Below are positions 1,746 through 20,919 of a stretch of DNA of 64,000 nucleotides, piece after piece. The notes beneath the pieces were generated by a model. The model did not search any database and was not told where the DNA came from. It was given only the letters and a program-made list of their open reading frames with translations. A program made the translations under genes and the position numbers. The stretch's first letter is position 1; each line of letters opens with the position of its first letter. Source of the DNA: a virus; IMG/VR virus record IMGVR_UViG_3300008516_000204, positions 32,001-96,000 of that record; one strand, 5' to 3'.

Positions 1746-1749
1746 ATAA

Positions 1750-4044
1750 GTGAGAATAAAAAATTTAGAAGAACTAAAAAATAAACTCAGACCTTATTTA
1801 AAGGAATATCTCGAACTCAATGATACTGTATTCGAGGGGAATCACCTGACCTGTCCCTGTCGGTCTAATCACAGGAACGATGACAACACCCCATCTGCGA
1901 CATTCTTCCCCGACGATGAGCATATCAAGTGCTTTGTGTGTGACGATGTATCCAATGCCGACATATTTGCTTGTGCTTATTTTCTTGAGGGAAAGCCTCT
2001 TACTGGTTCTGAATTTATCAGTGATAATGTTTTATACTTGGCGAAAAAGTTTGATATCTCCTATAAGGTGGAGGACATAAGCGACAGGGAAAAGCAAGCG
2101 AGTCAGTTGCGAGAAATTTTGGAAGTGGCTAACAAGATGATGAAAGCGGTAATAAAGCAGGAACATTCCTCGTTGAAAAAAGTCAAGGATTATATTAAGA
2201 AAAGACATTGGGATAAAATCATAGACAAGTTTGAGTTTGGTTACTGCCTTTATGAGAAGTTAATTGCTAATCTTTTGAAGCGGGGATATACCAAAGAACA
2301 GCTTGAAATGGCTGGCTTAACAGATAAAGATAATGGGAGAAACCAGAATAGTGCCAAAGGCGTTTTGAATAATCGGCTCGTATTTCCCATTAGGGACGGA
2401 TATGGCAGGATAACTGGGTTTGCTAGCAGACGATTAAGCGACAAAAATGGGGAGCAGAAATACATCAACTTTAGGGCGACTAATTTGTATAAAAAAGCCG
2501 AGATACTATATAACTTGAAAGAGGCGAAAAATCATCCCAAAGTCTATCTTGTTGAGGGGTATGCCGATGTGTGGTCTTTGGCTTTAAAAGGAGTGGATAA
2601 TGTCATTGCTCTGGGAGGTTTGGGATTTAGTGATAAGCAATATGACCTTTTGGTGTATAATAGGATTAAGCAGTTGACACTCTGTCTTGATAATGATGAG
2701 GCTGGAAAAGAAGCGACTACCCGAATTGTTGAAGAAAAATTAAAGGCAAAAAGGGATATAGAAGTTTTTATCAAAGAGCCAAATGGAAATAAAGATCCAG
2801 ATGAATACTTACAAAGACATAGTGCTGAAGATTTTCTTGGCTTACCAGAGTTCACCATTTTTGAGTGGAAACTTAAGGACTTGAAAGAGAATAAAGAGAA
2901 TGAGTTTCTCAAAAATGACTTGATCCAGTTGGTAGTTAATGAGGAAGATTATGTAACCACCGAACAGATGATAAGGGATCTGGCCGAGGTTTTAAATGTT
3001 ACTTTTGAGACACTCAAAAAAGAAGTTGAGCGAAACAGGAAATTGGGTAGTGGCAAATATTTGCTAACTTCACGTGATATATTGAAAGAGAAAGCATCTC
3101 TTGAAACCGAAGTAAACCAGTTCGAGTCTTGGGCTTGGTCGAGGGGTGGTGGACTTTTGGGTCTGAAAACTGGCTATCCGATACTCACGAAAAAATTAGA
3201 TGGGTTGCAAAATGCTTTCTATCTGCTCGCTGGACAGACAAACATAGGAAAATCAGCAGTCTTATTAAATCTGGCCTTAAATCTTACGAAACATAACGAT
3301 GTCTTTGTATTGTTCTTTTCCATTGATGATAATATCAGGCAAATACTTCCGAGAATAATTGCTGCCGATACTAATTTGGAAATAAATACTGTGGCAAATC
3401 CGAAGTTCAAGATTAAATATAACAAGGAACTCAAACCAGAAAGAGCCGAAGAGTTGCTCAAAGCCCGTGAAAAAGCGATGACCAACCTAAAATCCTTGTC
3501 AAATTCTTTTGCCGTAAAAGAGGAAAACGATATTCGCAGCATAGAGGAGATGGAAAAATACATCCGAATATACAAGGAGATTGCGGGCAAGAAGCAGTTG
3601 GTTGTAATCGTTGACAATCTGCACAGGATAAAAAGCGAACTGAGGTTCGGCTCGGTGAGGGAGACATATATGTATGTGTCGGACACGCTGAAAAGATGGA
3701 AGACCGATTATGATATTCCAGTTGTGGCCACAGCCGAACTCAAGAAGATAAACTCGTTGCGGAGACCGTTGGGCGACGATATTAAGGAATGTGTTGATTT
3801 GCAGTTCGATTCAGATTTTACAGCACTACTCTACAATGATTTTGATTTGCGGGATGACAGTACCCTGTATTTTGTGGATAATAATGGGAAATCCCAACCT
3901 GTCATTGAAATAAGCGTTATCAAGAACAAGACGGGCGGGTTCAAGGGAAAGTTATACTACAAATTTTATAAAAATTTTTCCAAGATAGTTGAGGCTTCAA
4001 GAGAGGAAATGGAGCAATACTTTTCAGATTTTATAGGAAGATAA
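1750..4044 (+). CDS. Primase-helicase fusion (CHC2 Zn finger + DnaG TOPRIM + DnaB-like helicase)
   Basis: CPC..H..C..C Zn finger; RLVFPI, KYIN, VEGYADV, LDNDEAG and KDPDE TOPRIM motifs; Walker A GQTNIGKS; Walker B VIVDNLH. Confidence 0.93.
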   Translation: MRIKNLEELKNKLRPYLKEYLELNDTVFEGNHLTCPCRSNHRNDDNTPSATFFPDDEHIKCFVCDDVSNADIFACAYFLEGKPLTGSEFISDNVLYLAKKFDISYKVEDISDREKQASQLREILEVANKMMKAVIKQEHSSLKKVKDYIKKRHWDKIIDKFEFGYCLYEKLIANLLKRGYTKEQLEMAGLTDKDNGRNQNSAKGVLNNRLVFPIRDGYGRITGFASRRLSDKNGEQKYINFRATNLYKKAEILYNLKEAKNHPKVYLVEGYADVWSLALKGVDNVIALGGLGFSDKQYDLLVYNRIKQLTLCLDNDEAGKEATTRIVEEKLKAKRDIEVFIKEPNGNKDPDEYLQRHSAEDFLGLPEFTIFEWKLKDLKENKENEFLKNDLIQLVVNEEDYVTTEQMIRDLAEVLNVTFETLKKEVERNRKLGSGKYLLTSRDILKEKASLETEVNQFESWAWSRGGGLLGLKTGYPILTKKLDGLQNAFYLLAGQTNIGKSAVLLNLALNLTKHNDVFVLFFSIDDNIRQILPRIIAADTNLEINTVANPKFKIKYNKELKPERAEELLKAREKAMTNLKSLSNSFAVKEENDIRSIEEMEKYIRIYKEIAGKKQLVVIVDNLHRIKSELRFGSVRETYMYVSDTLKRWKTDYDIPVVATAELKKINSLRRPLGDDIKECVDLQFDSDFTALLYNDFDLRDDSTLYFVDNNGKSQPVIEISVIKNKTGGFKGKLYYKFYKNFSKIVEASREEMEQYFSDFIGR

Positions 4045-4673
4045 AATGGATATAAATAGTATAAGCAAACTGTATGGCAAATCGGTTATAGAAACATTTA
4101 ATGAGAAATATCATAAATTTGATATAGTGGATAGGAGTTATCTTGAAAAATCTCTGCTTACCAAATCAGTCCAAGATTTTTATTTTACAGTGAGTTTAAG
4201 GCTTATAGCAGATTATCTTAAATGTATGCTACAGGAGAGGAAAAATGCAAAATAAAGACAGCCGAAGGCTCGTGGGCATTTACCTAAAATTGAAGGAGTA
4301 TGAGGGCGAACTGCTTGAAATGGAGTTTTCACATCCCAACCATAAAGAGTTCAAGGCCATTATATTGAGATGTGTTGATGAGTTGGATGAGGTTGCTCAC
4401 TTGCTTGTTGTGGAAGCGAATCAGATAAAGGGAGATAAAAATGAAAAATAAAATTAAGAAGACAAAGCAACTTATAAAGAAACTAGAGCCTTATTGGAAA
4501 GAACTGCAAGAAATTGAAAGAGAGTACTATAGTGCAGTTTATAGATTAGAAAAGAGAATGTCAAAAGAAATTGGGATATTGGGTTTAGAGTTTTTCCAAT
4601 GTGATAATTTCTTTGTAGGAATTGGTAATTTAGAGAGGACATTGCCACTTATTCACGCTAGGGAGTTAGAAAA

Positions 4674-5213
4674 ATGATAGTTACCGATACTAAACAATTA
4701 CTAATATCTTGTAAAAATGTTCAGCCAGAACAGGCAAAAGAAATTATCCAAAAGCTGGAGAAGGAACTTGTCTTACACAAAAATGGCATAGGACTTTCAG
4801 CAAACCAAATCGGCATCGATGCTAAAGTCGCTATCATTCGTATTCCTGACAAGGAAAAGATTGACCTGATAAATCCCAAAATAGTCGAGCATAGCAAGGA
4901 AATCGTGTTCTACAAAGAGGGTTGTTTGAGCTTGCCTGACCAGAAAAAGGAGATAACGATCCAGAGATACGAGCAGATAACCATCGAGAATGGATTTGAC
5001 AGGACTAAATATGTATTGTATGGGATGGAAGCGATTGCTTGTCAACACGAGATAGACCACCTAAATGGGTTATTGATTACTGATAAGCAAGCCAAACCAT
5101 ATGCAAGACCAGAAAGAAAGATAGGCAGGAACGAGAGATGCAAAGTTTGTGATATGAAATATAAAAAGCACACAAATTCCAATCACGGATTTATTCCAAA
5201 AGAGGGGGAATGA
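4674..5213 (+). CDS. def: Peptide deformylase with a degenerate C-terminal SEC-C-like motif
   Basis: All three PDF motifs: GIGLSANQIG, EGCLS, QHEIDHLNG. Tail KIGRNERCKVCDMKYKKH. Confidence 0.95.
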   Translation: MIVTDTKQLLISCKNVQPEQAKEIIQKLEKELVLHKNGIGLSANQIGIDAKVAIIRIPDKEKIDLINPKIVEHSKEIVFYKEGCLSLPDQKKEITIQRYEQITIENGFDRTKYVLYGMEAIACQHEIDHLNGLLITDKQAKPYARPERKIGRNERCKVCDMKYKKHTNSNHGFIPKEGE

Positions 5214-6088
5214 TTGAGATGATAAAGTCATTGAGACGAATATTATACACAGTTTTGGTAATCGCTGTTTTGTCCAATGCTTTTATTCATATAAGGGAAA
5301 TTGAAAAGTCGATTTCATTAGAACAAAAAGTAGAAAAAAATGAGACTGTATCACGATTTTCTTTCCAGTTAATAGGTAGCATTTTTGATAATTATGCCAA
5401 AATTATTGCCGATTTGTATAATAGAGTTGATGTTCTTTCTAAAAAGATAGTTGCGGTCAAACCAGATTTTGAAAGATTGATGAACGGAACGGTTATTATT
5501 TACAATGAAGAATATGTAGTTGCTGGGGTGTGCATAGAAGAGGATGAGGATTTTTATTATATCCTGACAGTTCAGCACTTGCTTGGAGATAGAGAAAATG
5601 AAATTTCAAGTCATATAGATACCGTCCCCGAATCGAATATGGGACTGGCTGTCAAATTAGAAAAGATTCAGCAATTTTTTCAAGAGAAAGCATTACAGCA
5701 ATTTGTCCCCAGTGAAGATATTACAGCTATAACTGTCCAGATGAGAAATCATACAATGGTAGCTGGGGAATTTTTATTTGTAAATTATGATTTAGATTTG
5801 GGTTTCCTGAGAATATATAAAAGTGAAAGAGTGGAACTTGAGGTATTAAAATTGGCCGAACCTTATCCCAAAGTAGGAGATGAAGTCTATGTTTTAGGAC
5901 ATCCATTAGGGAGAAAATACAATCTTTCAAAAGGTATAGTGAGCAAAACAGATATTGATTCCACTTATTTTGGTATTGATGCTCTTACTACTTTTGGTAA
6001 TTCGGGAGGTGCTGTTTTTAATAATAGAGGAGAAATCATTGGTATCTGTAGTATGGTTCCAGTGTATAGCTTTGAAATAGAGGAATAA
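5210..6088 (+). CDS. Membrane-anchored trypsin-like (S1) serine protease
   Basis: N-terminal TM segment and coiled coil; triad motifs TVQH, DLG, GNSGG; GHPLG. Confidence 0.85.
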   Translation: MIEMIKSLRRILYTVLVIAVLSNAFIHIREIEKSISLEQKVEKNETVSRFSFQLIGSIFDNYAKIIADLYNRVDVLSKKIVAVKPDFERLMNGTVIIYNEEYVVAGVCIEEDEDFYYILTVQHLLGDRENEISSHIDTVPESNMGLAVKLEKIQQFFQEKALQQFVPSEDITAITVQMRNHTMVAGEFLFVNYDLDLGFLRIYKSERVELEVLKLAEPYPKVGDEVYVLGHPLGRKYNLSKGIVSKTDIDSTYFGIDALTTFGNSGGAVFNNRGEIIGICSMVPVYSFEIEE

Positions 6089-6107
6089 AAACTACCAAAA
6101 ATAGGAG

Positions 6108-7325
6108 ATGATTAAAATGAAAAAGAAAACTAATTTAGTGCAGTTTAACAAGGATTACAACAGGGGGTTGACTACCACTCAACTGTCCATTAAATATGGC
6201 ATCAGCGAAAGGACTGTTGAGAGAATAGCAGCCAAACAAAGAGCAAAAGGACAGTTAAACTATAAGAAATATATTACCAAATCAGGGGTTATCAAGGAAG
6301 ATGCTTCTGTAACACAGAAAGAATTGTTGAAACTTTTGGCTCTTTATGAGACCAAATCTGTAGTTGCCAAGAAACTGGGCATAAGTGAAGGCAAAGTGAG
6401 GGGATTATGCAAGCAATATAATATAATCGATTCAACAACTCGTTCTAAACTTCTGGTAGAATCCTTGCACGAACTTACGAAAGATGTTAAACCATATCAG
6501 GCAGCCAAAACCCATTCACATATTACTGGCGAAACGCTGGTAATCCAATTAACCGACTGGCATGCTGGAAAAATAGTAAAAGACCAACAGGGTAATGTGG
6601 TCTATAACGAAGCCGTATTTAAGCGGAGAATGGATAAATTCTGTGCCCAGATATTGAAGCTATTGGACAACCACATTAAGAAAGGGACTAAAATCAATGA
6701 TGTGGTTCTCATCTCGACTGGAGATAATGCCAATGGCGAAGACATATATGCAACACAGGCATATGAACAAGAGCTTGCACCTCCTTATCAGGTAATGTTG
6801 GTTGTGGAAGTGTTTACCAAATTGATTCAGGCTTTGCTAGATAGGAAACTAAATGTTAAGTTTTATGGGGTAAAGGGAAATCATGGTCGCCTTGGCAAGG
6901 ATAAAGACCCGAATTCCAACTGGGATATTATGATATACCTTATCCTCAAATATCAAGCGTATGCTAATAATAAAAAGGTTGAGATAAATTTTTCTACTTT
7001 AGATTACCTCAATTTTGAAATACAGGGATGGAAATACCACATTCGGCATATAGCACCAGAGCAACCAGACACATCTGCAAGCAGGGCGAAGTTTGGTGGG
7101 TGGGCTGGTATGCACAACGCCGATGCGATAGTCTATGGACACTTTCATCACTTCGGCATTTTCGATGCCAATGGAACGAGAGTGTTCAGGGGCGGTTCGC
7201 CCATCGGTGCGGATGAGTTTGCCGAATCTTTGGCTAAAGAGGCTGACCCAGTTCAGTTGGTCTGGGGCGTTTCAAAGGAGAGGATTCTGACCTTTAGCTA
7301 TGCGGTTGATTTAGCGGATATTTAA
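6108..7325 (+). CDS. HTH-containing metallophosphoesterase
   Basis: Two HTH-like segments, then calcineurin-like motifs DWH, GD, GNHG, H, GHFH. Confidence 0.8.
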   Translation: MIKMKKKTNLVQFNKDYNRGLTTTQLSIKYGISERTVERIAAKQRAKGQLNYKKYITKSGVIKEDASVTQKELLKLLALYETKSVVAKKLGISEGKVRGLCKQYNIIDSTTRSKLLVESLHELTKDVKPYQAAKTHSHITGETLVIQLTDWHAGKIVKDQQGNVVYNEAVFKRRMDKFCAQILKLLDNHIKKGTKINDVVLISTGDNANGEDIYATQAYEQELAPPYQVMLVVEVFTKLIQALLDRKLNVKFYGVKGNHGRLGKDKDPNSNWDIMIYLILKYQAYANNKKVEINFSTLDYLNFEIQGWKYHIRHIAPEQPDTSASRAKFGGWAGMHNADAIVYGHFHHFGIFDANGTRVFRGGSPIGADEFAESLAKEADPVQLVWGVSKERILTFSYAVDLADI

Positions 7326-7339
7326 TGAGGAGCAATAAA

Positions 7340-7477
7340 ATGATTTTTGGATTTTGGGATAAAATTATGTTTACAATTATTGCTTATAGTATGATGATTT
7401 ATTATTACATAAAAATCCACTTAGAAATTTTGGGAGTGATTTATTTAATTAAGGTAGTAAAAAGGAGGGTACCTTAA
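7340..7477 (+). CDS. 45-aa hydrophobic microprotein
   Basis: GAGGAG RBS; MIFGFWDKIMF...VVKRRVP; TAATG coupling to the next gene. Confidence 0.5.
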   Translation: MIFGFWDKIMFTIIAYSMMIYYYIKIHLEILGVIYLIKVVKRRVP

Positions 7478-7758
7478 TGCCTTATATTACACAAAGAGAC
7501 AAGGATAGATTTACAGCTAATGCAGATAATAATGGAGTAGCAGAATATCTAAGTAGATTAGGATTAGGAGAATTTGCTGGGCATCTAAATTATCTCAATT
7601 TTAAGATAGTTCGTAGATGGATAAAAAAGAACGGCAAAAAATATTTTGCATTTGCTACTATTGTAGGAACTTTAATTTGTTGTATATTAGAGATTTATCG
7701 CAGATTAGTCGCTCCTTATGAAGACAAAAAAATTCGTGAAAACGGGGATGTGAAGTGA
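7477..7758 (+). CDS. Conserved phage protein of the MPYI...G.LNY type (DUF6899-like)
   Basis: MPYI, GHLNY, E.YRR..APYED.K..ENGDV motifs. Confidence 0.65.
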   Translation: MPYITQRDKDRFTANADNNGVAEYLSRLGLGEFAGHLNYLNFKIVRRWIKKNGKKYFAFATIVGTLICCILEIYRRLVAPYEDKKIRENGDVK

Positions 7759-7947
7759 TGGGATTTTTTGAGTTTGGAGAGGATATTTTTAAAGAGGAAT
7801 ATAAAGATAGTTTGGATAGATTTACTAAAAGAGCATTGAATAGGGCTGCTAAAGATATTAATTTTTTAAACAAGATATCTGACAAAATTCGTTCTCGAAT
7901 TGAGTCTATCAGAAAATTTAATAAGATAATTGATAATATAAAATAAT

Positions 7948-10900
7948 ATGAAAACTATAGCATTAGCAATGATAGTCAAAAACGAATCGAGAGTGATAAA
8001 GCGTTGCCTCGATTCTGTCAAAAACATTATTGACTATTATGTGATAATAGAGGACACCGCTTCTACCGATGGCACAGCAGATATTATTCGTGAAACCCTG
8101 AAAGATATCCCAGGCGAGATAATACAGAAGGACTGGGTAGGATTTGCGGATACTCGAAACCATTATATTGAGGCATCGAAAGGGAAGGCGGATTATATTT
8201 TGGTAATGGATGCCGACCAAATTTTGGAAGTTGATAACGATTTTGACAAGGATAAATTGGACAAGGACATTTATAACTGTATCGTGAAATATCCCACATT
8301 GCAACACCATTTCCCCAAGATATTTAGACCAGATTGCGGATGCAAATATAAGGGCATTATACATAACTTTTTATCTACGAGTAATGTAACTGTGGGACAG
8401 CTAAATAATATCAGATTTTTAGATCTACACGACGGGAAGCGGGCAATGAATTATTCGGAAAAGATAAAGAAAGATATTGAGATTTTGAAAAGTGCTATTA
8501 AGGCAGACCCAGCAAATAAAGTGAGATATACATTTTACTTGGCACAATCTTTGCGTGAAGATGGAAGATATGAACAGGCTATTAGATACTATAAGAAACG
8601 AGTAAGTTATAAGGGTTGGCGAGAGGAAGTTTATCGAAGTTTATACCAAATAGGTAATTGTTATTTAGCACTTAAAGATTATAATAGAGCTATCTACAGT
8701 TACTTAAAAGCATATAATTACAGACCAACGAGGGCAGAATCTATTTTCAAATTAGCACTTTTATATCGCAATCTCGGACAGAGGCAATTGGCGTACGAAT
8801 TTTCTAAAATAGGAATCGGGATTAAGTATCCCAAATCCGATACATTATTTGTTGAGCATAATATCTACGATTATCTAATGTTGTTTGAGTATTCAATTGC
8901 CCTTTATTATGTAGGAAGATATGCGGAGTCGATTAGGGTTTGTAATAGGATAGATTCTATGGTGGGAGTTCCCAAATCTATTAAAGAACAGAATAGAAAA
9001 AATCGGGAGTTCTCGCTGAATAAGATTTCAGAGTGGTCTATGGACAAGGAAATGTATAATTGGATAAGAAGAAATGTACCCAGAGGGGGTACTATACTTG
9101 AACTTGGAAGTGGGAAAAGCACGATAGATTTAGAAAAGGATTATAGAGTATATTCAGTAGAGCATAGTAAAGAGTGGTTAAATCTCTCACCCAAAAGTAG
9201 ATATATTTATGCTCCGATAAGAAAGGGTTGGTATGATATTGATGTATTGAAAAGGGAGATGCCAATTCACTATAATTTGATAATTGTGGATGGTCCGCCA
9301 GGATATATAGGAAGAAAGGGTTTCTATGAGAATCTAAAATTGTTTAATACCAAAGTTCCCATTCTATTTGACGATACCAATCGCAAAGCAGAAAAAGGTT
9401 TATTGGAAAAGGTAGCAAAGAAATTAAGAACCAAATATACAGAATATAATGTCAGTAATAAAAAGTTTGCTGTGCTTAATTATATAGAGAAAAAGCCTAA
9501 GAAATATGATGTTATTTTCTATGATAATGTTACAACACCATTTACTTCAAGGACTTGGAAAAGTAAGGCTGTCGGGGCTTCAATATTGGAAGCATCATTA
9601 TTGCTAACTGAACTCGCTAAAGAGAAGAAAGTTTTGGCTTTTTCTCGGACAGATAAGTCAAAGGTACAAGATAGAATTTTGTGGAAGAATTATAATAATT
9701 GCTACAATTATGAGTGCGATACTCTGATAGTTTTCAGATACAGTAGTTTGCCTCCAATTAAGTATAAAAGACTTATCGTATGGGCACACGATGCACCACC
9801 ACTCGCCCATAGGCATTTATTTGAAGCATTAAATAGGGATAACGCAACTTTGGTTACAATATCGGATTGGCAGAAATCTCTTTTCGAAAAATATGTAAAG
9901 AATATTGAGACGATAAGATTATGGCTTCCAGATTGGATTTACAGTTATAAGACAGAAAAAGACCCAAATAAATATATCTATGCGAGTGCCAATGTGAAAG
10001 GATTAGATAGCACGATTAAACTGTGGTCGGAACTAAAAAGAGATAGCCGAATGATAGGGGCAACCTTGTATGTTTGTACGCCTGGATATGACAAAGTGGA
10101 TGAACAAAAATTGAGGGAAGCAGGTGTAGTATTTTTAGGAAGCCTTCCAACATTAGAAGATGTAATCAGGGAAATTGCAAGTTCGGTAGGAATGTTTTAT
10201 GTCAATGATTTTCCAGAGACATTTGGGGTATCTCCTTATTTGGCAGAAGTATTAGGTTGCCGAACTCATATTTTATGTGTAAAAGGATTTGGTGCTTTGA
10301 GAGAAGTGTTGAATAGCGATTTACTGACAGATGATAGGGATAAGTTTATGGCAGATGTTTTGGAGGCACATCAAAATGGTGGGCATATATTTGAGCCAGA
10401 TGTACTTACAAAAGAGGAACAATATAGAAAATGGAAGGCAATGATAGATAAAAAGGAAATCACCGAAATCCTACAGGAAAGCGATATTCCAAAAGGGATG
10501 TATTTGAGGAATTTTGAGGGTGGTAAAGAGGGATTACAGGAACTGATTAGCAACTTACCGAAGAATTGTGTTATGGCTGAAATTGGAAGTTATATTGGAG
10601 AGTCTACTGAATTATTTGCTAAAAATTGTTTTAGAGTTTATGCTATCGATGCTTGGGAAAATTATTACGATAAAAATGATAAATCATCTTATCAGTATCC
10701 TATGAAGTTAGTAGAGCAGGCTTTTGATGTTAAAACAAAAAAATTCTTTCTTAAGATAGTAAAAATAAAAAAATATAGTAAAGAAGCAAGTGAGACTTTT
10801 GGAAACAAGATTTTTGATTTTGTCTACATAGATAGCAATCATCAGTATGAGAATATCCTTGAGGATATTAAGATTTGGTTGCCGAAGATAAAGCCGAATG

Positions 10901-11031
10901 GGATGATAGGCGGGCACGATTATGGCTATTTACCCAATGTTACAAAAGCGGTTGATAAAGTATTCGGGGAGCAGAAAGTAGAAACTTTTGAGGACACAAG
11001 TTGGTTGGTTAGATTGGAAAATGTAAAATGA
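7948..11031 (+). CDS. Multidomain GT2-TPR glycosyltransferase / SAM methyltransferase / GT-B glycosyltransferase / Methyltransf_24-like fusion
   Basis: MIVKNE..STDGT..MDAD (GT2); TPRs (FYLAQS, YQIGNCY); LELGSGKST..VDGPPG; WAHD..ISDWQK..ETFG (GT-B); EIGSYIGES..YIDSNH..GHDY. Confidence 0.85.
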   Translation: MKTIALAMIVKNESRVIKRCLDSVKNIIDYYVIIEDTASTDGTADIIRETLKDIPGEIIQKDWVGFADTRNHYIEASKGKADYILVMDADQILEVDNDFDKDKLDKDIYNCIVKYPTLQHHFPKIFRPDCGCKYKGIIHNFLSTSNVTVGQLNNIRFLDLHDGKRAMNYSEKIKKDIEILKSAIKADPANKVRYTFYLAQSLREDGRYEQAIRYYKKRVSYKGWREEVYRSLYQIGNCYLALKDYNRAIYSYLKAYNYRPTRAESIFKLALLYRNLGQRQLAYEFSKIGIGIKYPKSDTLFVEHNIYDYLMLFEYSIALYYVGRYAESIRVCNRIDSMVGVPKSIKEQNRKNREFSLNKISEWSMDKEMYNWIRRNVPRGGTILELGSGKSTIDLEKDYRVYSVEHSKEWLNLSPKSRYIYAPIRKGWYDIDVLKREMPIHYNLIIVDGPPGYIGRKGFYENLKLFNTKVPILFDDTNRKAEKGLLEKVAKKLRTKYTEYNVSNKKFAVLNYIEKKPKKYDVIFYDNVTTPFTSRTWKSKAVGASILEASLLLTELAKEKKVLAFSRTDKSKVQDRILWKNYNNCYNYECDTLIVFRYSSLPPIKYKRLIVWAHDAPPLAHRHLFEALNRDNATLVTISDWQKSLFEKYVKNIETIRLWLPDWIYSYKTEKDPNKYIYASANVKGLDSTIKLWSELKRDSRMIGATLYVCTPGYDKVDEQKLREAGVVFLGSLPTLEDVIREIASSVGMFYVNDFPETFGVSPYLAEVLGCRTHILCVKGFGALREVLNSDLLTDDRDKFMADVLEAHQNGGHIFEPDVLTKEEQYRKWKAMIDKKEITEILQESDIPKGMYLRNFEGGKEGLQELISNLPKNCVMAEIGSYIGESTELFAKNCFRVYAIDAWENYYDKNDKSSYQYPMKLVEQAFDVKTKKFFLKIVKIKKYSKEASETFGNKIFDFVYIDSNHQYENILEDIKIWLPKIKPNGMIGGHDYGYLPNVTKAVDKVFGEQKVETFEDTSWLVRLENVK

Positions 11032-11266
11032 AAACTATAAAAGAAGTTTATTATAGCCCCAAATATAATCGATTTGTTCAAATTAGAGGACTCCGAGATG
11101 ATGGATATATAATTGGAGGTTTTACTATTTTTTATAATGATGCTTTTACCACTACCAGAAATAGCAAGATGAGTAGAAATTTCTGTAAAGATTTTATTGA
11201 AATTGATAATATAGATGAGCTCAAATTTGCTAAATTGGATGAAAATACTAATACTTGGAGAATAAA

Positions 11267-12070
11267 ATGAACATAGGTATCTGGGGAACTGGCATAGTAG
11301 GCTCGGCAACAGGCAGGGTGCTTGAGCAGGCACACAAGGTCTATTACTATGATAAGTATAAAAAAGACCCCAAACTTACTACTGATAAAGAGTTGGTGGA
11401 TAATTGCCAGATTATATTCATTACTGTTCCTACACCTATGTTGCGAAGCGGTAGGATTGGTATAAGAGATATAAAAGACTCTCTATTTCAAATACAAAGA
11501 TTGACGAAATTGAGGAAGATAATTGTTATCAAAAGCACAGTAGTCCCAGGTACTACCAAGCGATTTGTCTACAAGTTTCCACAGTTTGACTTTGCCCATA
11601 ATCCAGAATTTTTGCGGGCTAAATATGCTTATGAAGATATGTTAAACTCCAAAAGAGTAGTGCTTGGTGTGGATAAAGATGAAATTTTCCAGATACTTGA
11701 GAAAATGTATCGTGAGATATTTAAGGAAATTCCTATTATAAAGGCGACATTCACCGAAGCCGAGATAGTAAAATATGCCTCCAATATAATGTTAGCTGGG
11801 CAGATAGCACTGGCTAATGAATTGTATCAGGTTTGTAAGCAGTTAAGAATAGACTATAAAATAATTGAACAAGTTTTAAGTTATGATAAAAGAATAGGAA
11901 CAAATATTAAAATGCCAGGTTTGGATGGTAAATTAGGTTTCGGTGGTGGATGTTTTCCTAAAGACCTCAATGCACTGATTTATAGGTCAAGGGAAGCGGG
12001 TTATCGCCCATATTTGTTGGAAGAAATTTGGCGATTAAATGTGAGAGTTAGGAAAGGTGCTAAAAAATGA
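11267..12070 (+). CDS. UDP-glucose/GDP-mannose dehydrogenase family protein, lacking the C-terminal domain
   Basis: GIWGTGIVG Rossmann, VPTP, KSTVVPGTT, NPEFL, AE..KY, GFGGGCFPKD. Confidence 0.9.
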   Translation: MNIGIWGTGIVGSATGRVLEQAHKVYYYDKYKKDPKLTTDKELVDNCQIIFITVPTPMLRSGRIGIRDIKDSLFQIQRLTKLRKIIVIKSTVVPGTTKRFVYKFPQFDFAHNPEFLRAKYAYEDMLNSKRVVLGVDKDEIFQILEKMYREIFKEIPIIKATFTEAEIVKYASNIMLAGQIALANELYQVCKQLRIDYKIIEQVLSYDKRIGTNIKMPGLDGKLGFGGGCFPKDLNALIYRSREAGYRPYLLEEIWRLNVRVRKGAKK

Positions 12071-12720
12071 CAAACGAGCATATCCTAAAAGTCTATTTGG
12101 CAGGTCCGATGGAAGACATTCCAGATGGTGGTATTCAGTGGCGAAACAGGATTACACCCAAATTAATTGAATATTTTGGCGATAGAATTGTCATTCAAGA
12201 CCCTTGCCGAATGGAAAACGATAAACTAAAGGGCTTCGTAGACCCAAATACTCCATTGGAAAAAGTCAAAGAGGTATTGCAGGGTTGGAGACAGGGTGGG
12301 CATTGGGATAAGTTTGACCCAGCAATGGAAAAGATAATTGATATGGATTTTGATTGTGTCGAGAAAAGTGATTTTATTATTCTCTTCCTAAAATTTAAAG
12401 ATAGGGATGGTAAAAAAGTTCAAATGGGTGGAACTATCAGTGAACTCACTTACGCTTACAGACATCGTATTCCAATTTATGCGGTTACATACAATACTAT
12501 TTCAGAAGAGAATAGTTGGATAGTTCGTATGGCACGGGGAAAAACAAAAGCTATTGGAGATAGAAAGATTTATCCCAATTTTGCCCAAGCATTGGAAGCC
12601 ATCAAAGAGGATTATAGGGAATTTAAGGTACCCAAGAAAGAAGCCGAAAAAGCATTAAAGGAATTCAAATCCGAACAAAAACCTGATGAACCCCTTAAGG
12701 AAGCTAAAGGTGAAAAATGA
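12067..12720 (+). CDS. Nucleoside 2-deoxyribosyltransferase-like / nucleotide N-glycosidase
   Basis: YLAGPM, D...V..SD, GT..E..YA motifs. Confidence 0.7.
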   Translation: MTNEHILKVYLAGPMEDIPDGGIQWRNRITPKLIEYFGDRIVIQDPCRMENDKLKGFVDPNTPLEKVKEVLQGWRQGGHWDKFDPAMEKIIDMDFDCVEKSDFIILFLKFKDRDGKKVQMGGTISELTYAYRHRIPIYAVTYNTISEENSWIVRMARGKTKAIGDRKIYPNFAQALEAIKEDYREFKVPKKEAEKALKEFKSEQKPDEPLKEAKGEK

Positions 12721-13151
12721 TTAATTACTTAATAGGTATAGGACTAAGTTTGGTTCTTAGTGGTTTGATTGGGTGGGAACGAGAATCCCAAAAGAAACCA
12801 GCAGGACTGAGAGATGCTATGCTAATTTGTCTTGGTGCTACTATGTTTACTATTATCTCGCTTATTTTAAGGGATGTTCCTGCTTCTGAAGGAGTTAAGT
12901 ATGATTTAGGAAGAATTATTGCTTACACTGTGGCTGGTGTCGGCTTTCTTGGTGGTGGGGTTATGCTAACCAATAAAAAGAAAATTGAGGGAATTACCAC
13001 AGCAAGTATGCTTTGGGCGATTGTAGGTATCGGAATTTTATGTGGGTTAGGGGAATATTTATTGGCTAGCATTTGTACGGGAGCAATTTATTTAACCTTA
13101 AAATTAAAATATGTTCAAATTAAAATAATTAAACAAAAAAATAAGAAATGA
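12717..13151 (+). CDS. MgtC/SapB family membrane protein
   Basis: IGWERE...KPAGLR, RIIA..V.GVGFLGGG, GITTA..W...IG..CG.G. Confidence 0.92.
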   Translation: MINYLIGIGLSLVLSGLIGWERESQKKPAGLRDAMLICLGATMFTIISLILRDVPASEGVKYDLGRIIAYTVAGVGFLGGGVMLTNKKKIEGITTASMLWAIVGIGILCGLGEYLLASICTGAIYLTLKLKYVQIKIIKQKNKK

Positions 13152-13738
13152 GAAAATTAATATTATTAGCAATATTCATAAGTTTATCTATATATTTGAT
13201 TAAGACGAATTTTGTAGAGCTTAAATATCATTTGCCCCTGCCTATAAAAATAGAAACCAGAGCAAATCTGACAGAGACTAAAAAAATGTTGCAGGGCAAT
13301 CCGATGAAAATAGCAAGATGGTTGGATAACAATATAACTGGAAAGTCAGATGGAAGAATTCAGTATGCCCAAACACCAGAAGAGACATTTGAGAGGCGCA
13401 CTGGTGATTGCGAAGATTATAGTATTTTGGCAAAATATTTTTTAGATTCTCGATATGATGAAATTTATTTAATAATCTGGCAAGGAAAGTCTAAGTCCTC
13501 ATCTGAACATTATGCAAAGCGTAAACAACAATCAATATGTCACTGTATTTGTGTATTCAAGATAGGCGAAAAAATGTGGGGTATAATGGATAATAGCAAT
13601 TTTATAATGGCTTATGGTTCAATAGAAGATATAGTTAAAGCAGATTGTGAATTTAGAGATACTAGGATTGGGCGTGCCTATATTGTGCGATTTACTCACT
13701 ATATTTATCGAAGAATTAAGAAACTGGATATAAAATGA
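13148..13738 (+). CDS. Transglutaminase-like cysteine protease (BTLCP-like), N-terminal TM
   Basis: GDCEDY, CHC and MDN give a Cys-His-Asp triad. Paralog at 34263. Confidence 0.75.
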   Translation: MRKLILLAIFISLSIYLIKTNFVELKYHLPLPIKIETRANLTETKKMLQGNPMKIARWLDNNITGKSDGRIQYAQTPEETFERRTGDCEDYSILAKYFLDSRYDEIYLIIWQGKSKSSSEHYAKRKQQSICHCICVFKIGEKMWGIMDNSNFIMAYGSIEDIVKADCEFRDTRIGRAYIVRFTHYIYRRIKKLDIK

Positions 13739-14271
13739 CCAAGAGAAAGAAAAATAAGAAATCACGACGAGACAAATCCCGTGTCCTACATCTATTCAAG
13801 GAAATCAATAGCGATAGTGTTGAAAATATTATCACAAAACTCCTCGAATTAGATAGGGACAGGAAGCGGAGGCTCATTACCATTTATATAAATTCTCCTG
13901 GTGGGGATTGTGGTTCAGGATTTGCTCTCATCGATATTATGGAAAAATGTAAGTGCCCTATTAAAACAATCGCTGTGGGCGAGGTGGCGAGTATGGCTGT
14001 TCCAATTTTTTTGGCTGGAACGCAGGGAAGGCGCTATATCTCCAAGCATACATTTCTTATGATACATCCGCTTCATTTGGGAGCGAGGGATTATTTATCT
14101 TTCGCTAAATCGAGAGTGTTAAATGCCGAAGAACTTGAGAAATTGTATGACAACTATGTTATTGATAGAAGCAATTTACCTAAAAAGATTATAGATAAGG
14201 CAAAGACTAAAGAAGTATGGCTTAATGCTAAAGAGTGTTTAAAATATGGGTTGGCTGACAAGGAACTATAA
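13735..14271 (+). CDS. clpP: ClpP-family protease
   Basis: YINSPGG, VASMA (catalytic Ser), MIHP (His), WLNAKE...YGLAD. Confidence 0.88.
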   Translation: MTKRKKNKKSRRDKSRVLHLFKEINSDSVENIITKLLELDRDRKRRLITIYINSPGGDCGSGFALIDIMEKCKCPIKTIAVGEVASMAVPIFLAGTQGRRYISKHTFLMIHPLHLGARDYLSFAKSRVLNAEELEKLYDNYVIDRSNLPKKIIDKAKTKEVWLNAKECLKYGLADKEL

Positions 14272-14522
14272 ATGAAAAGGCTTAAGAAAATCAAGCAGAT
14301 ACAGAAATTTCAGAGGGCTTATACAGCCCTCACGAGTAAGCTATTCGAGGCTGTAAAAAATGATGAGCCAGACGATTTCAAGAAGCTGGTTATGGGTTAT
14401 CTGATGGAACAGCAGAGATTGAATACGGAATTCTCTATGGACTTATTAAGGGCGATTCCAAAGGAAGTTGATAAGGACAGATTTGATAATATTATAAAAC
14501 CATTAGAAAAGGAGATTGGATA

Positions 14523-14855
14523 ATGCTAAAAAAAGACAGAGATAAGAGCAGAAAGATTCAAGCCAAAGAGAAGGATATCCCAAGAAAACTATCCTATTTC
14601 AATGAGTTTATAGGACATATGAAAAGCATTATACTCCAAGGGACAGACAAATATACTGGGGCAGAAAAGGACAAAGCCGAAACTATAGATATTATGCCCC
14701 AAGTTGTCGGGGAAGATGGGTATGTGAGTTTCATTATCTGTGATATATTAAAGAGGTTGATTAGGTTCAAGAATGATAGGAGAGAGAGAGATATAATCAA
14801 AATAGCTGTCTGGTGTTATTTACTGTTAAAATTTTATAAGGATAAACACAAATGA
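14523..14855 (+). CDS. Hypothetical, DUF3310-like helical nucleotide-handling protein
   Basis: G..KY...D.LKR..R....D..KIA.W pattern. Confidence 0.35.
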   Translation: MLKKDRDKSRKIQAKEKDIPRKLSYFNEFIGHMKSIILQGTDKYTGAEKDKAETIDIMPQVVGEDGYVSFIICDILKRLIRFKNDRRERDIIKIAVWCYLLLKFYKDKHK

Positions 14856-15406
14856 AAAAATATCAAATTATATATGTAGATCCTCCTTGGTCTTACAACG
14901 ATCAAGGTTGTCAAGGAACAATGGCAAATCATTATAAAGGTATGAAACTGGAGGATATTAAGAATCTTCCTGTGAACCAAATAGCCGATAAGAATAGTAT
15001 ATTATTTTTATGGACAACTTATCCAATGTTGCAAGAGGCATCGGAAGTGATAAAGGCATGAGGCTTTCAATACAAGAGTATTGCCTTTCAATGGGTCAAA
15101 CTAAATCCCAAAGCCCTAACCCCTTTCTATGGATTAGGGAGACGGACACGGGGTAATACAGAACCATGTTTATTGGCAACAAAAGGTAAGCCTAAAAGAG
15201 TAAGTGCCTCTGTTTTTCAACTAATATTTGCTCCTCGCAGAAAGCATAGTCAAAAACCAGATATAGCAAGAGATAAAATCATTCAACTAGTAGGAGATTT
15301 ACCTCGTATAGAATTGTTTGCTACAGAGAAAATAAAAGGATGGGATTCAATAGGTTATGAGATCGATGGCAAGGATATACGAGATGTTTTACAGGAGATG
15401 ATATGA
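14852..15406 (+). pseudogene. MT-A70-family adenine methyltransferase interrupted by an in-frame TGA
   Basis: DPPW, LFLWTT, KA*GFQYK..F.WVK (TGA 15059-15061 at the conserved Trp), HSQKP, RIELFA. Both halves are in the same frame. Confidence 0.88.
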
Positions 15407-16317
15407 AAACAAATAAAAATCTTAATTATTATATCAAGGTCTGTAAGAAATTGATAGATAGGCCATACAATAAATTCAATCTGGGCAACTATCGAGGCAT
15501 TATGGCATCTGAATATGATACCCCTGTTTACTCCTACCCAACAAAATCAGATAGCCCGATTAAGTTGATGGCAGGACAGCATAGAGAAGCCCAGATTATT
15601 TCCACCGATTATCAATTTAAGCATAATAAAAGGCGAATTATCTTGGTGGGAAAAGGGATTTTATTTGATTCAGGTGGATATAATCTAAAGCCCAAAATGG
15701 TGAATATGAAAAGTGATATGGCTGGGATGGCTGTCTCATTTGCTGTAGCTTCTTATTTTAAAAAGCAAAATGATGTAATTGCCTTCTGCCCTGTTGCAAC
15801 GAATTTTCTTGATGGAAATCAGATAATCCCTGGCGATGAAATAAAAATAGGTAATAAAATTGTTAAAATAACCAATACAGATGCGGAGGGAAGATTGATT
15901 TTAGCCGAGGCACTTTCTGAATTAAAAGTCAAACCCACAGATATAGTAATCACAGTTGCGACTTTAACTGGGGTTGTGGGCTATGCGATAGGTGATAAGG
16001 CTACTGGCGTTTTTAGTCCTAATAAAAGATTGGCAAATAAGTATTTGGAAGCATCTAAAAAGGCAAAAGAACTGGCATGGGAATTGCCCTTATGGGATTA
16101 TTTGCAGAAGCATTTTGATAAGAAGAAAATTAAAAATGTCCAGAAGATAAATCCAGGTGCCTCAATGGGAGCAATGTTTCTCAAGCAATTTGTTAGATAT
16201 CCCCAAAACTGGTTACATCTCGATATCGCTTATTCTGCTTGGGATAAGAAAAAGGAAAAGGCAACTGGTGAGCCAATTAAATCGTTAGTTCAATTTATAG
16301 AAAGGATAGGGCAGTAG
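15403..16317 (+). CDS. pepA: M17 leucyl aminopeptidase, catalytic domain only
   Basis: VGKGILFDSGG, LKP, MKSDMAG, NTDAEGRL, ATLTG, WLHLDIA. Confidence 0.92.
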   Translation: MKTNKNLNYYIKVCKKLIDRPYNKFNLGNYRGIMASEYDTPVYSYPTKSDSPIKLMAGQHREAQIISTDYQFKHNKRRIILVGKGILFDSGGYNLKPKMVNMKSDMAGMAVSFAVASYFKKQNDVIAFCPVATNFLDGNQIIPGDEIKIGNKIVKITNTDAEGRLILAEALSELKVKPTDIVITVATLTGVVGYAIGDKATGVFSPNKRLANKYLEASKKAKELAWELPLWDYLQKHFDKKKIKNVQKINPGASMGAMFLKQFVRYPQNWLHLDIAYSAWDKKKEKATGEPIKSLVQFIERIGQ

Positions 16318-16521
16318 ATATGTCGCTGAAACGGTCTATTGTTATCGATGATAGGCACTGTATATGCAAAAATTGCAAGCGTAGTAATGTCTGCCCAATC
16401 TATACTAAATACCAGAAAATGCTTGACTTGATGGAGAATATCGAACCCGATAAATATTTGATTAAGATAACAGCACATATTAGGAAATGCAATAACTTTT
16501 TATCAGACGAGGAGGTGTAAA

Positions 16522-16869
16522 ATGACGAAGATGATTCCATGTTTTGTGTGTTCCAAATTAGTTGAGGCGATTGAGGACAAGGCGATAGCGAAACTGTGTC
16601 CCGAACACGATACAGCCCAGAATCGAGAGGAAATGCGTAACACTCCAGTTCATCAGCTCTTGAGAAGGCTCAATGATTCCATTCAGAAGCAGGTTGACCA
16701 AGTTACGAATGATGTAGGAACGACCAATGCCAAGTATGAGGAAATCAGGCAGGAACTGGTTATTTTGCAGGGCAAGATAGACAGCTTGGAGACGACCCCA
16801 GCATCAGCACCTGTGGTTGAAGAACCGAAAGATACCACAAAATTAAATGAATATGGTGAGTTGATCTAA
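16522..16869 (+). CDS. Hypothetical Zn-finger + coiled-coil protein
   Basis: CxxC..CxxH followed by a heptad-like helix; GGAGG RBS. Confidence 0.55.
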   Translation: MTKMIPCFVCSKLVEAIEDKAIAKLCPEHDTAQNREEMRNTPVHQLLRRLNDSIQKQVDQVTNDVGTTNAKYEEIRQELVILQGKIDSLETTPASAPVVEEPKDTTKLNEYGELI

Positions 16870-16887
16870 TTTTTGAAAGGGAATAAA

Positions 16888-17052
16888 ATGACAGATGTTC
16901 AATTTCGAATAATGCAAGAAGCTGTAGCTAATCTGCTTAAAGTAAAAGACGAGATGGCTAAAGGTCTATTTGAAATGTATAAGGCATATCAGAAAGCAGG
17001 CTTTAAGAAGAAAGAGGCTATGGAGTTGTTGAAAACTATTCTGAAACCATAG
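16888..17052 (+). CDS. 54-aa hypothetical protein
   Basis: MTDVQF...Y.AY..AGF...EA.ELL motif seen in small phage proteins. Not in the ORF track. Confidence 0.5.
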   Translation: MTDVQFRIMQEAVANLLKVKDEMAKGLFEMYKAYQKAGFKKKEAMELLKTILKP

Positions 17053-17614
17053 GGGATAGAATGAAGAAAAGTTTGGTAGGGTGGGCTAAAAGTGAACAAT
17101 GGTTTTTAGGTCTTATTAAAACAGTAATGGAAGTTAAAAAAGTTCCTTTCTGGTTATTTGAAGATAAAGATTTTATGGCATCTATTACTTTTGGGGCTTC
17201 TTGTTTTTATTGTGAAGAAGATTTTTTATATTGGTTGGATAAATTCTTAAATGGGCTTTCAAGACATTCTCAAGAATTAGTTAATAGAGTATCTTGTATA
17301 AGAATAGTAGAAGAACTAAAAAGAAGATATGATTTGACAGATGAAAAAGGCAAGAAAGAAATTAGAGAGGAATTGTCAAAGATCACATATTAAGGAGAAT
17401 AAATGGAGAAAAATACCATCACAATAGGCAATGTCATCAGGCTTACGCAGGAGAATGGGCGATATACTGTTGAAGAAAAAACCGATGGCAAATGGATAGA
17501 GATAGCGAGATTTGCTCTGGGAATTGATATGATTACCTATGTCAAGGGCTATCTGGATGAGTATGTTGAGCAGATGAAACGATATGGCAACAATATAGAA
17601 GAACAGAAGGAAAA

Positions 17615-18328
17615 ATGATTAGACTTAAGACAGATAAAGATATTCAGTTAATTGAGAAGGCAATCGAAATAGGAAAAAATGCTTTATCGGTTGCCAAGCA
17701 AATTACTGTTGTCGGGATTACTACACAGGAGATAGATAGGCAAGTGGAAGCATACATTCTTAAAAAGGGTGCCGCTCCCTCGTTCAAAGGCTACAAGGGC
17801 TTTCCTACTGCTTGTTGTATAAGTTTGAATAATGAGATAGTACATGGATATCCCAGAGATAACAAGATAAAAAGCGGTGATATAGTCAAGATAGATATTG
17901 GTATATGCTTTAAGAGCAGATATTCCGACCAAGCAATTACATTTGTAGTTGGAGAAGGCAAGTCTAAAAAGCATCTTGATTTAGTATATACAACCAAACT
18001 GGCATTAGAGAGAGCAAAAAAGGTTGCTATTCCAAATAATACTTTGAATCAGATTTCGTGGGAAATACAGCGAACAGCACAGGAAAATGGATTGGGTATA
18101 GTTACTGCTTATACAGGACATGGCGTGGGTTTTGAAATTCACGAAGAACCAATTATCAGAAATATTGTTACTCCAAATGAAAATATGCGATTAGTAAAAG
18201 GAATGGTGTTGGCTATTGAGCCGATGTTTGCATTAGGAAAGGGCGATGTTGAAGATAAAGGATATGCTGTTGTAACTAAAGATAATAGTATGTCCTCCCA
18301 TTTTGAGGAAACAATTATCGTAAGATGA
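17615..18328 (+). CDS. map: Type I methionine aminopeptidase
   Basis: PSFKGYKGFP, CISLN..IVHG.P, D.V.ID.G, YSD, GHGVG..IHEEP, AIEPM, SHFEET. Confidence 0.95.
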   Translation: MIRLKTDKDIQLIEKAIEIGKNALSVAKQITVVGITTQEIDRQVEAYILKKGAAPSFKGYKGFPTACCISLNNEIVHGYPRDNKIKSGDIVKIDIGICFKSRYSDQAITFVVGEGKSKKHLDLVYTTKLALERAKKVAIPNNTLNQISWEIQRTAQENGLGIVTAYTGHGVGFEIHEEPIIRNIVTPNENMRLVKGMVLAIEPMFALGKGDVEDKGYAVVTKDNSMSSHFEETIIVR

Positions 18329-18930
18329 AAAAGAGTAAGACAAAAAAACTACTGTGTGAATATTGGAATCAGGGCAAAATCTGCGGTCTTGATAGAACTA
18401 AGCATTGCCCCTATACCAAAGCCACCAGTTACAAATGCGAGAGCTGGCTCAAGCGGATAAAACGACGCAAGAAAGGGATACATATTCCTGTGATAATTAC
18501 CGATACAAGAGAAAATTGTGGCTACTTATTCAAGGGCAAAGAGGCAGAGGCAAAAATAGTTATGAAGAAACTGGCAACAGGAGATTACAGTTTGGAAGGC
18601 TTCGAGAACGATATAGTCATAGAAAGAAAGCGGATAAACGAACTCTTTGGGAATTTTGCTGGGGACAGGGAACGATTTATGCGGGAAGTTGAACGAATGG
18701 AAAAAATCCCATATAAGTTTCTCTTGATAGAGGGTTCATTCAAAGATTTAGCCCAAATGAAAAAAGTCCCAGGCAAAGTCAGTATTAAATTAGTGGTGGC
18801 TACCCTCATCAGTTTGATGATAAAGCACAATGTAAAAGTTGTATTCGCTGGAAATCCGAAACTGGCGGAACAGTTGGCATATAGGATTCTTATCAAGTTT
18901 TTTAACTATAAGATAAAAGGGGATGTATAA
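18325..18930 (+). CDS. ERCC4-domain nuclease
   Basis: DTRE, TGDYSL, IERK, RF.RE..R, LLIEG. Confidence 0.88.
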   Translation: MKKSKTKKLLCEYWNQGKICGLDRTKHCPYTKATSYKCESWLKRIKRRKKGIHIPVIITDTRENCGYLFKGKEAEAKIVMKKLATGDYSLEGFENDIVIERKRINELFGNFAGDRERFMREVERMEKIPYKFLLIEGSFKDLAQMKKVPGKVSIKLVVATLISLMIKHNVKVVFAGNPKLAEQLAYRILIKFFNYKIKGDV

Positions 18931-19304
18931 TGGGAACTAATTACTATTTAAGAACAGATATTTGTAAAAGTTGTAAGAGATATGAAGAGATTCATTTAGG
19001 TAAGCATAGTTTTGGTTGGGTATTCCATCTACAATTTAACGATGGCAAATTTTATGAGCACTGGAGAGGAATGAGAAAATGGCTGAGAGACAAGACAAAA
19101 AGTGGTGCAAAGATATTCGATGAATATGAAAAAGAAGTTAATTTATGCAGTTTTATAAGATTAGTTCAAAAATTCCAGAGAGATAAGAAGAATAGAAGGC
19201 ACAATGATTATGTGAAAAAGAATTTTCCCTATAACCCTGAGTATTTAAAGGATATGATTGTAGATGCAGATAATTTTGAATTTGCTAATTACGAATTTAG
19301 TTAA
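18930..19304 (+). CDS. Conserved phage hypothetical protein
   Basis: MGTNYY..C..C..HLGK.S.GW.F...DEY pattern. Confidence 0.6.
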   Translation: MGTNYYLRTDICKSCKRYEEIHLGKHSFGWVFHLQFNDGKFYEHWRGMRKWLRDKTKSGAKIFDEYEKEVNLCSFIRLVQKFQRDKKNRRHNDYVKKNFPYNPEYLKDMIVDADNFEFANYEFS

Positions 19305-20625: not shown

Positions 20626-20919
20626 TTGAGTCTGCATAAGACATTGAAGCCGAGAAGAAAAAAGGTTCGTTCCGTTCTAAAGAGACATGAAAGATTGGCA
20701 AAGGCTATTAGGGAACGGAATTGGCTCAAAAAGATGGGTGCATATGGTTTACCCAAGTTTAACCCACTAAAATTTAAAGTGAAAAAGAAAGAGGAAGAAG
20801 AGCAAACAACTACATTAGGTAAAGTTGATATTGTAGCACAGCATAAATTAGAGAAAGAAAAATTAAGAGAAGAAAAAAAACAGAGAAAGAAAGGGAAAGA
20901 TACAACTGGAATAAGATGA
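20626..20919 (+). CDS. PVC-superphylum signature 'small basic protein' homolog
   Basis: MSLHKTL...RSVLKRHERL......W....YGLPK fits the family pattern MS.H.S...R.VLKR.ER...W...GLPK. TTG start with AAGGAGG RBS. Confidence 0.75.
   Translation: MSLHKTLKPRRKKVRSVLKRHERLAKAIRERNWLKKMGAYGLPKFNPLKFKVKKKEEEEQTTTLGKVDIVAQHKLEKEKLREEKKQRKKGKDTTGIR

Follow-up and report, generated by a model that had tools for sequence, protein, structure and literature searches.

Peptide deformylases (PDFs) are among the commonest auxiliary genes of marine viral metagenomes (PMC3660681), and those of phages are active enzymes, with a proposed role in keeping translation going in the infected cell (PMC3660681; PMC7162821). 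The structurally characterized PDFs of cyanophage S-SSM7 (3UWA) and Vibrio phage Vp16 (5MTC), both products of auxiliary genes, have the type 1 core with its three motifs, and a PDF has also been published for huge phages (PMC7162821). ClpP is distributed patchily among jumbo phages, where it is thought to act on host proteins and in some cases is accompanied by ClpS (PMC7824862). The cultured Vibrio phage V6Aob (PV454620.1; 98.7 kb) is annotated as encoding both a deformylase (Def) and a type I methionine aminopeptidase (MetAP), on the same strand and ~13 kb apart in a non-structural region. Here we describe a stretch of phage DNA -- bases 32001-96000 of the 106,111-bp IMG/VR virus record IMGVR_UViG_3300008516_000204, a window of 64,000 nucleotides to which all positions refer unless genome coordinates are stated -- in which genes for Def, a ClpP-family peptidase, an M17 aminopeptidase and a methionine aminopeptidase (Map) lie between 4674 and 18328. 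An earlier note on this DNA had taken them for a complete N-terminal maturation and proteolysis pathway and had supposed that, in phages, def genes alone were known; the latter view is outdated, given the annotation of V6Aob and the published jumbo-phage ClpPs (PMC7824862).

Gene families in 4674-18328 were called with Pfam and NCBIfam. All four genes were confirmed, each on the plus strand and each scoring far above chance:

4674-5213 (+): peptide deformylase (Def), 179 amino acids (aa); PF01327, TIGR00079
13735-14271 (+): non-canonical ClpP-family serine peptidase, 178 aa; PF00574, 1.2e-33
15403-16317 (+): short M17 leucyl-aminopeptidase-family protein, 304 aa; PF00883, 3.2e-65
17615-18328 (+): type I methionine aminopeptidase (Map), 237 aa, short form; TIGR00500

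The span thus runs from the first base of Def to the last base of Map, in the order Def, ClpP, M17, Map. The sequences show intact genes that reside in a phage, are conserved, and occur in linkage in several lineages of phages. For each of the enzyme families a phage example has been described before or is annotated in GenBank, and the set of four, judged by comparison with the relatives described below, is a mosaic on a Def + ClpP core and not a single pathway. It seems to us somewhat probable that these are auxiliary genes, gained one at a time, which form a loose set for N-terminal processing and polypeptide recycling within a rightward non-structural block of the genome.

The four enzymes

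The catalytic residues are kept in all four proteins, with the single exception of a Glu at the Asp site of ClpP, and the enzymes look active as judged from their translations; the intact catalytic motifs reported within ~14 kb by the earlier note are borne out with that one caveat. Def scores 104 bits against PF01327 (E 7.6e-30; Pfam cut-off 22.8) and 109.9 bits against TIGR00079, above the equivalog cut-off of 103.95. Its segments GIGLSANQ, EGCLS and QHEIDH represent the three catalytic motifs of the type 1 core (G[IV]GL[AS]AxQ, EGCLS and HEXXH) and align to those of solved PDFs, including the phage enzymes 3UWA and 5MTC, which are among its best sequence matches. Most phage PDFs stop just past the HEXXH helix, whereas this Def continues into a basic C-terminal tail of ~40 aa (5082-5213, +), with CxxC followed by KYKKH and then by a further His, which is kept only in the two closest relatives, G006 and G007. 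In Pfam the tail has no SEC-C match and only a weak, sub-threshold match to a C2H2 zinc finger; it may be a small zinc knuckle, and it may stand in for the C-terminal helix by which bacterial PDFs bind the ribosome. The Def proteins of some relatives (L154, L158) have an N-terminal extension of ~60-80 aa and the variant motifs EGCCS, NEACLS and AHEIDH.

The gene right after Def, at 5210-6088, is not Map; it encodes a membrane-anchored trypsin-like protease, and Map is the last gene of the span. Map (type I, MEROPS M24A) scores 227.9 bits against TIGR00500, above the equivalog cut-off of 171.35, and aligns end to end with Thermotoga maritima MetAP (1O0X) and also with Escherichia coli MetAP. 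The ligands (His, two Asp, His, two Glu) are all aligned, the five that bind metal (Asp, Asp, His, Glu, Glu) and both conserved His residues included, and the motifs GDIVKID, YSD, GHGVG, AIEPM, HFEET and VHG are invariant in 16 members of its clade, which consists of 236-239-aa proteins on metagenome contigs. One of these, 56% identical, lies on an 89-kb contig with a few small genes in common with this phage. Many "phage" matches in GenBank to Map and to M17 were discounted, since they come from contigs of bacteria (Salmonella, Listeria, Acinetobacter MD-2021a) that had been entered as phages.

The M17 protein has in common with cellular M17 enzymes (E. coli PepA and PepB, tomato LAP-A, Plasmodium M17) the residues and fold of the catalytic domain. 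All of its catalytic and metal-binding residues are aligned -- the Lys, Asp and Lys of VGKGILFDSGGYNLK, the Asp of SDMAG, and NTDAEGR -- and Lys, Asp, Lys, Asp, Asp, Glu and Arg are invariant in 20 members of its clade (more than 20 in another count). It differs from the cellular enzymes in consisting of the catalytic domain alone: the N-terminal domain of ~170-220 aa is absent, and the open frames of the clade encode 300-310 aa compared with 470-500 aa in cellular M17. The Pfam match spans positions 56-309 of the catalytic-domain model, and the protein falls below all NCBIfam cut-offs for full-length enzymes. AlphaFold2 (AF2) models of M17 and ClpP are confident (predicted local distance difference test, pLDDT, 86-87; 87.5 for M17); that of M17 covers about half of the full-length M17 structures, with template modelling (TM) scores of 0.80-0.84 on the query and ~0.5 on the targets.

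Proteins of this short type are numerous. A protein search gave more than 120 clusters of ~300 aa at 52-64% identity, and in IMG/VR there are 11 matches over the full length, with 50-63% identity. No close cellular homologue was found in 185,579 species genomes; the best match there is 41% identical, all of the matches lie within full-length PepA-type genes, and all but a few of them cover only residues ~50-304. FastTree, applied to 175 sequences, places the 26 rows of the short clade in one monophyletic group on a long stem (local support 100), with six other short viral M17s as their sister (support 86), the latter placement being provisional in a quick tree with long branches. On these comparisons the short M17 is a lineage of viral and metagenome contigs, apparently long resident in viruses. 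A literature search found no paper on phage M17 aminopeptidases or on this short clade.

The ClpP-family protein has in common with cellular ClpP (E. coli, Thermus thermophilus, Staphylococcus aureus; MEROPS S14) its fold, two residues of the triad (Ser in ASMA, His in MIHP) and a YGLAD motif at the C-terminus. Its AF2 model superimposes on T. thermophilus ClpP with a root-mean-square deviation of 1.7 Å over 163 columns, handle helix included. It scores 116.9 bits against PF00574 (cut-off 20.2) and falls below the cut-off of every NCBIfam ClpP model, the best giving 103.7 bits against a cut-off of 228; no ClpP outside its small clade exceeds 35% identity to it. Two features set it apart from the cellular proteins. 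The triad Asp is a Glu in 8/8 clade members, among which the catalytic residues are invariant, and also in the ClpPs of L154, L156 and L158; such a Ser-His-Glu enzyme may still be active. In addition, it has no counterpart of the first ~12-18 residues of canonical ClpP, the (A)LVPxVIEQT... segment being replaced by MTKRKKNKKSRRDK, so that a short Lys/Arg-rich segment, probably disordered, stands where the hydrophobic N-terminal axial loop would be (residues 1-13 are disordered in the AF2 model). Canonical ClpP depends on its N-terminal loops for gating of the pore and for productive coupling to ClpX or ClpA, and once they are deleted it degrades unfolded proteins without an ATPase. Because the phage protein naturally lacks these loops, it more probably acts by itself as a peptidase on unfolded chains than as the executor of an N-degron pathway; no partner ATPase is encoded in the genome.

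Co-occurrence in other phages

The closest relative found, G006 (81.7 kb, 77% complete), has the same gene order, and its matched proteins are mostly 73-96% identical to those of this phage (portal 92%). It has Def (80%), the trypsin-like protein (73%), MgtC (91%) and ClpP (74%), and both M17 and Map are missing from it; at the matching positions the flanking genes are conserved and the gaps are ~780 bp as against 1465 bp here for M17 and ~250 bp as against 714 bp for Map. Because the flanks are conserved and the gaps short, M17 and Map are single-gene gains or losses. Two more distant records have different subsets: G001 combines Def, ClpP and M17, and in G004 Def and ClpP lie close together and Map is also present.

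Two combinations of three recur in more distant phages. In a survey of whole records, 13 viral records bearing M17 (ten of the short clade and three others) were considered, none of which has Map. Three complete genomes among them, G013, G015 and G016 (96-102 kb), all have Def, a short M17 and ClpP, and in the ClpPs of these trio phages, too, the Asp site is occupied by Glu and the canonical N-terminus is absent. Portal and capsid similarity to the present phage is undetectable in G013 and G016 and amounts to 26-30% identity in G015, and because it is so low the trio can be said to recur across very divergent phages. In neighbourhoods of ~20 kb, Def lies within 10 kb of a short M17 gene in 7/11 loci and ClpP in 5/11, and no Def was found near the loci used for comparison, which comprised 69 other M17 loci of viruses, 80 viral loci with unrelated ClpPs and 34 Map loci. 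The spacing is tight: in L154, L156, L158, L159 and L160 the start of M17 follows that of Def at a distance of ~1.0-1.9 kb. In these relatives ClpP adjoins Def and M17, not head genes.

The second combination is that of Def, Map and ClpP. The Map-bearing IMG/VR records are mostly large phages, and all five Map-bearing huge phages with a completeness of 97% or more (361-481 kb; L024, L028, L032, L033, L035) have Def together with two adjacent ClpP genes, Def lying ~12-13 kb from the pair. This group of huge phages (350-480 kb) thus has Def + Map + ClpP as here; it differs in its tandem ClpPs with higher Pfam scores (145-174 bits), in its Maps, which are 33-37% identical, in genomes 3-4 times larger, and in having no M17, which is absent from all 13 Map-bearing large or huge-phage records. 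V6Aob differs in that its Map is only 28.5% identical and that it has no ClpP and no M17 match.

All four genes together were found only in this genome among the records surveyed. Of the full pathway that the earlier note described, then, what stands is that three of the four genes co-occur repeatedly in other phages (Def/short M17/ClpP and Def/Map/ClpP) and that the enzymes look active; what does not stand is its inheritance as one set, as the absence of M17 and Map from G006 makes plain. No paper combining a phage with deformylase, methionine aminopeptidase and either ClpP or M17 was found in a literature search, and none on V6Aob. A DNA-level search of the 13.7-kb stretch against GenBank phages gave no match.

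The phage genome and the neighbouring genes

The record is a real, complete phage genome, with a 99-bp direct terminal repeat and a CheckV completeness estimate of 100%. Its hallmark genes encode a portal, an HK97-type capsid protein, tail fibres and an intein-containing large terminase, and its replication and repair genes a primase-helicase, a family A polymerase, RecA and SbcCD. The concern that the contig might be a host chimera, raised along with the pathway idea, is laid to rest by the terminal repeat and the completeness together with the portal, the terminase and the head module, in which a Peptidase_S78 prohead protease, fused to a scaffold-like region, adjoins the HK97-type capsid gene. 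The ClpP gene, the sole PF00574 match in the genome, lies ~28 kb from that module on the opposite strand, in a rightward non-structural block shared with the primase-helicase, polymerase and RecA. With an S78 protease already present in the head module, ClpP is not needed for head maturation. Phage genes flank each of the four enzyme genes, whose GC content is 36-38.5% (genome, 35%). Four DNA sequencing runs from two samples of marine sediment contain the whole stretch, and may be the source data.

The genes of 4674-18328 are all on the plus strand and most are joined by overlaps of stop and start codons. The Def stop overlaps the start of the trypsin-like gene at 5210, the M17 gene has an ATGA overlap with the open reading frame upstream, and Map has one with both of its neighbours. 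The four enzyme genes are interspersed with genes for glycan, membrane and nuclease functions, as follows:

5210-6088 (+): trypsin-like protease, HtrA-type without PDZ, with an N-terminal transmembrane helix; PF13365, 1.3e-19
between 6088 and 12717 (+): metallophosphoesterase/helix-turn-helix (HTH) protein; 1027-aa glycosyltransferase-tetratricopeptide repeat (TPR)-methyltransferase protein; UDP-glucose dehydrogenase
12717-13151 (+): MgtC-family membrane protein; PF02308, 7.4e-33
13148-13738 (+): transglutaminase-like cysteine-peptidase-like protein; DUF553, 7.6e-07, and Transglut_core
also in this stretch (+): ERCC4 nuclease

The trypsin-like protein, which shares 73% identity with its G006 counterpart, shows a hydrophobic N-terminal segment, TVQH and GNSGG in its translation; it probably belongs to the envelope and stands outside cytosolic N-terminal processing. 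The same probably holds for the transglutaminase-like protein, the sixth peptidase-like gene product of the span, encoded directly before ClpP, which has a GDCEDY motif and a hydrophobic N-terminus (a signal or transmembrane segment). A paralogue lies at 34263-34835 (+), with weak Peptidase_C93 and Transglut_core matches. G006 has no such gene between MgtC and ClpP; it has a single transglutaminase-like gene, at the second position, which shares 55% identity with the second copy here and 41% with the first. The MgtC gene, 91% identical in G006 and 46-47% in L005/L152, is kept beside ClpP in relatives.

Scans of 1-20000 for sigma-70 promoters and terminators gave counts equal to those of shuffled controls, so that transcription units cannot be defined from them, and a tRNA scan found none. 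Upstream of the long rightward block that holds the peptidase genes there is a tandem pair of c-di-GMP-I riboswitch aptamers (Rfam RF01051), at L003:9667-9742 and 9813-9885 (genome 29667-29885), ~2.1-2.3 kb before the window start; their scores of 50.9 and 49.3 bits exceed the gathering score of 35.

Several other genes of this phage have unusual features. The large terminase (825 aa, 48947-51424, +) has an intein with a LAGLIDADG domain, and a methyltransferase-like protein of 652 aa upstream of it (46527-48485, +) has a weak intein-splicing match. The family A DNA polymerase (24126-26666, +) is fused to an N-terminal domain of the uracil-DNA glycosylase superfamily (PF03167, 4.8e-32). A 668-aa protein with an ATP-dependent DNA ligase domain is encoded between portal and prohead protease (L002:12534-14540, -, genome coordinates), an unusual location for a ligase. 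A 97-aa protein (20626-20919, +) matches TIGR04137, a small basic protein of Chlamydiae and Verrucomicrobia, with E 5.6e-08 and 32.5 bits, below the 50-bit cut-off. This match and the Omnitrophota metagenome-assembled genome (MAG) labels of a few short-M17 homologues give a weak hint that the host may belong to the Planctomycetes-Verrucomicrobia-Chlamydiae (PVC) group or to Omnitrophota.

Possible roles of the gene set

If the genes do form a loose set of auxiliary functions, Def, here with Map, would supplement the limited co-translational machinery of the host, the removal of the formyl group and then of Met keeping pace with the burst of phage protein synthesis. By unblocking formylated N-termini, Def would also open them to aminopeptidases, and the tight Def-M17 linkage in relatives allows M17 to be the Met-removing partner of Def where Map is absent. 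The ClpP, without gate loops and without a phage unfoldase, would join with the catalytic-domain-only M17 to degrade unfolded polypeptides and peptides to amino acids that can be used again. What we infer here is that the enzymes are active, on which substrates and at what time they act, and how the phage benefits.

Several points weigh against this proposal. G006 lives without M17 and Map, so neither can be essential to this type of phage. M17 enzymes also act on Cys-Gly and other peptides, and a recycling arm made up of ClpP and M17 is our own inference. In PHROG, ClpP matches best to phrog_94, a family labelled "head maturation protease" (2.1e-31). No RNA run is listed among the sequencing runs that contain the stretch. 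About 40% of the predicted phage proteins of at least 80 aa have a small second residue that Map could expose, a count which rests on uncertain start codons and does not discriminate between readings. Some of the co-occurrence could be explained by a shared gene pool or habitat and not by joint function, and the neighbourhood counts overstate independence, L158 and L159 being near-identical.

A more specific possibility, which we hold to be less likely than not, is that Def, the short M17 and the gate-less Ser-His-Glu ClpP constitute a phage-specific, unfoldase-free proteolytic unit conserved across ~100-kb sediment phages, G013 and G016 with their undetectable portal and capsid similarity among them. 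An open-pore ClpP, which may be likened to drug-activated ClpP, would shred unfolded or nascent host chains, Def would unblock formylated ends, and M17 would take the peptides down to amino acids or remove Met in place of Map, Map having been added on top in this phage.

It is rather unlikely that the four are unlinked passengers, independent accessory genes, perhaps moonlighting or decayed, whose closeness has no functional meaning. M17 and Map do behave as single-gene insertions or deletions relative to G006, the genes are dispersed among others of quite different kinds, and the foursome was seen in this genome only; against this stand the invariance of the catalytic residues in more than 20 short-M17, 16 Map and 8 ClpP clade members, a Def/short M17/ClpP linkage far commoner than in the control neighbourhoods, and the recurrence of the trio in phages without detectable portal or capsid similarity.

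A part in virion maturation, in which the ClpP-like protein, perhaps with M17 and Map, would process capsid, scaffold or other virion proteins, is suggested by the PHROG match and by the annotation of several of the listed ClpP-like GenBank phage matches as head maturation protease. We think it improbable, since the capsid and portal already have Peptidase_S78 beside them, with ClpP ~28 kb off, on the opposite strand and among non-structural genes. On the head-maturation model NF045542 the protein reaches 64.8 bits against a cut-off of 120, cellular ClpP models score higher, and its nearest structures are cellular ClpPs; in relatives, too, its neighbours are Def and M17.

A little more doubtful still is the editing of N-degrons that the earlier note had put forward, by which Def, Map and M17 would trim the N-termini of host or defence proteins to destabilising residues and ClpP would then degrade them. 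All four activities for exposing and using N-terminal residues are indeed encoded within 14 kb, and jumbo-phage ClpP, in some phages with ClpS, is suspected of acting on host proteins (PMC7824862). The degradation line itself finds no footing, however: the complete genome has neither ClpS (PF02617) nor an AAA+ unfoldase (PF07724, PF00004), and this ClpP lacks the loops that canonical ClpP uses with ClpA and ClpX. Def and Map, moreover, work on nascent chains at the ribosome, not on folded mature proteins (PMC3660681), and the four genes are not co-inherited. Least credible by far is an assembly chimera or host contamination, with bacterial peptidase DNA joined to a phage contig: the four families are classic cellular housekeeping ones and a few short-M17 homologues have Omnitrophota MAG labels, yet the terminal repeat and full completeness, the flanking phage genes, the gene order of G006, the genome-like GC and overlaps with neighbours, the four runs from two samples (which may be the source data) and the want of a close cellular short-M17 homologue among the species genomes all stand against it.

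Of most interest in this region are the family of short M17 proteins found on viral contigs, the Ser-His-Glu ClpP without a gate, and the repeated linkage of these two with Def. A ClpP that naturally lacks the gate loop would, if active, be a natural counterpart of drug-deregulated ClpP. The linkage of Def with a short M17 and a non-canonical ClpP in several phage lineages, or with Map and paired ClpPs in huge phages, bears on the role of the common phage deformylases; such linkages point to a wider phage investment in the processing and turnover of new proteins, beyond a helper for one host protein.

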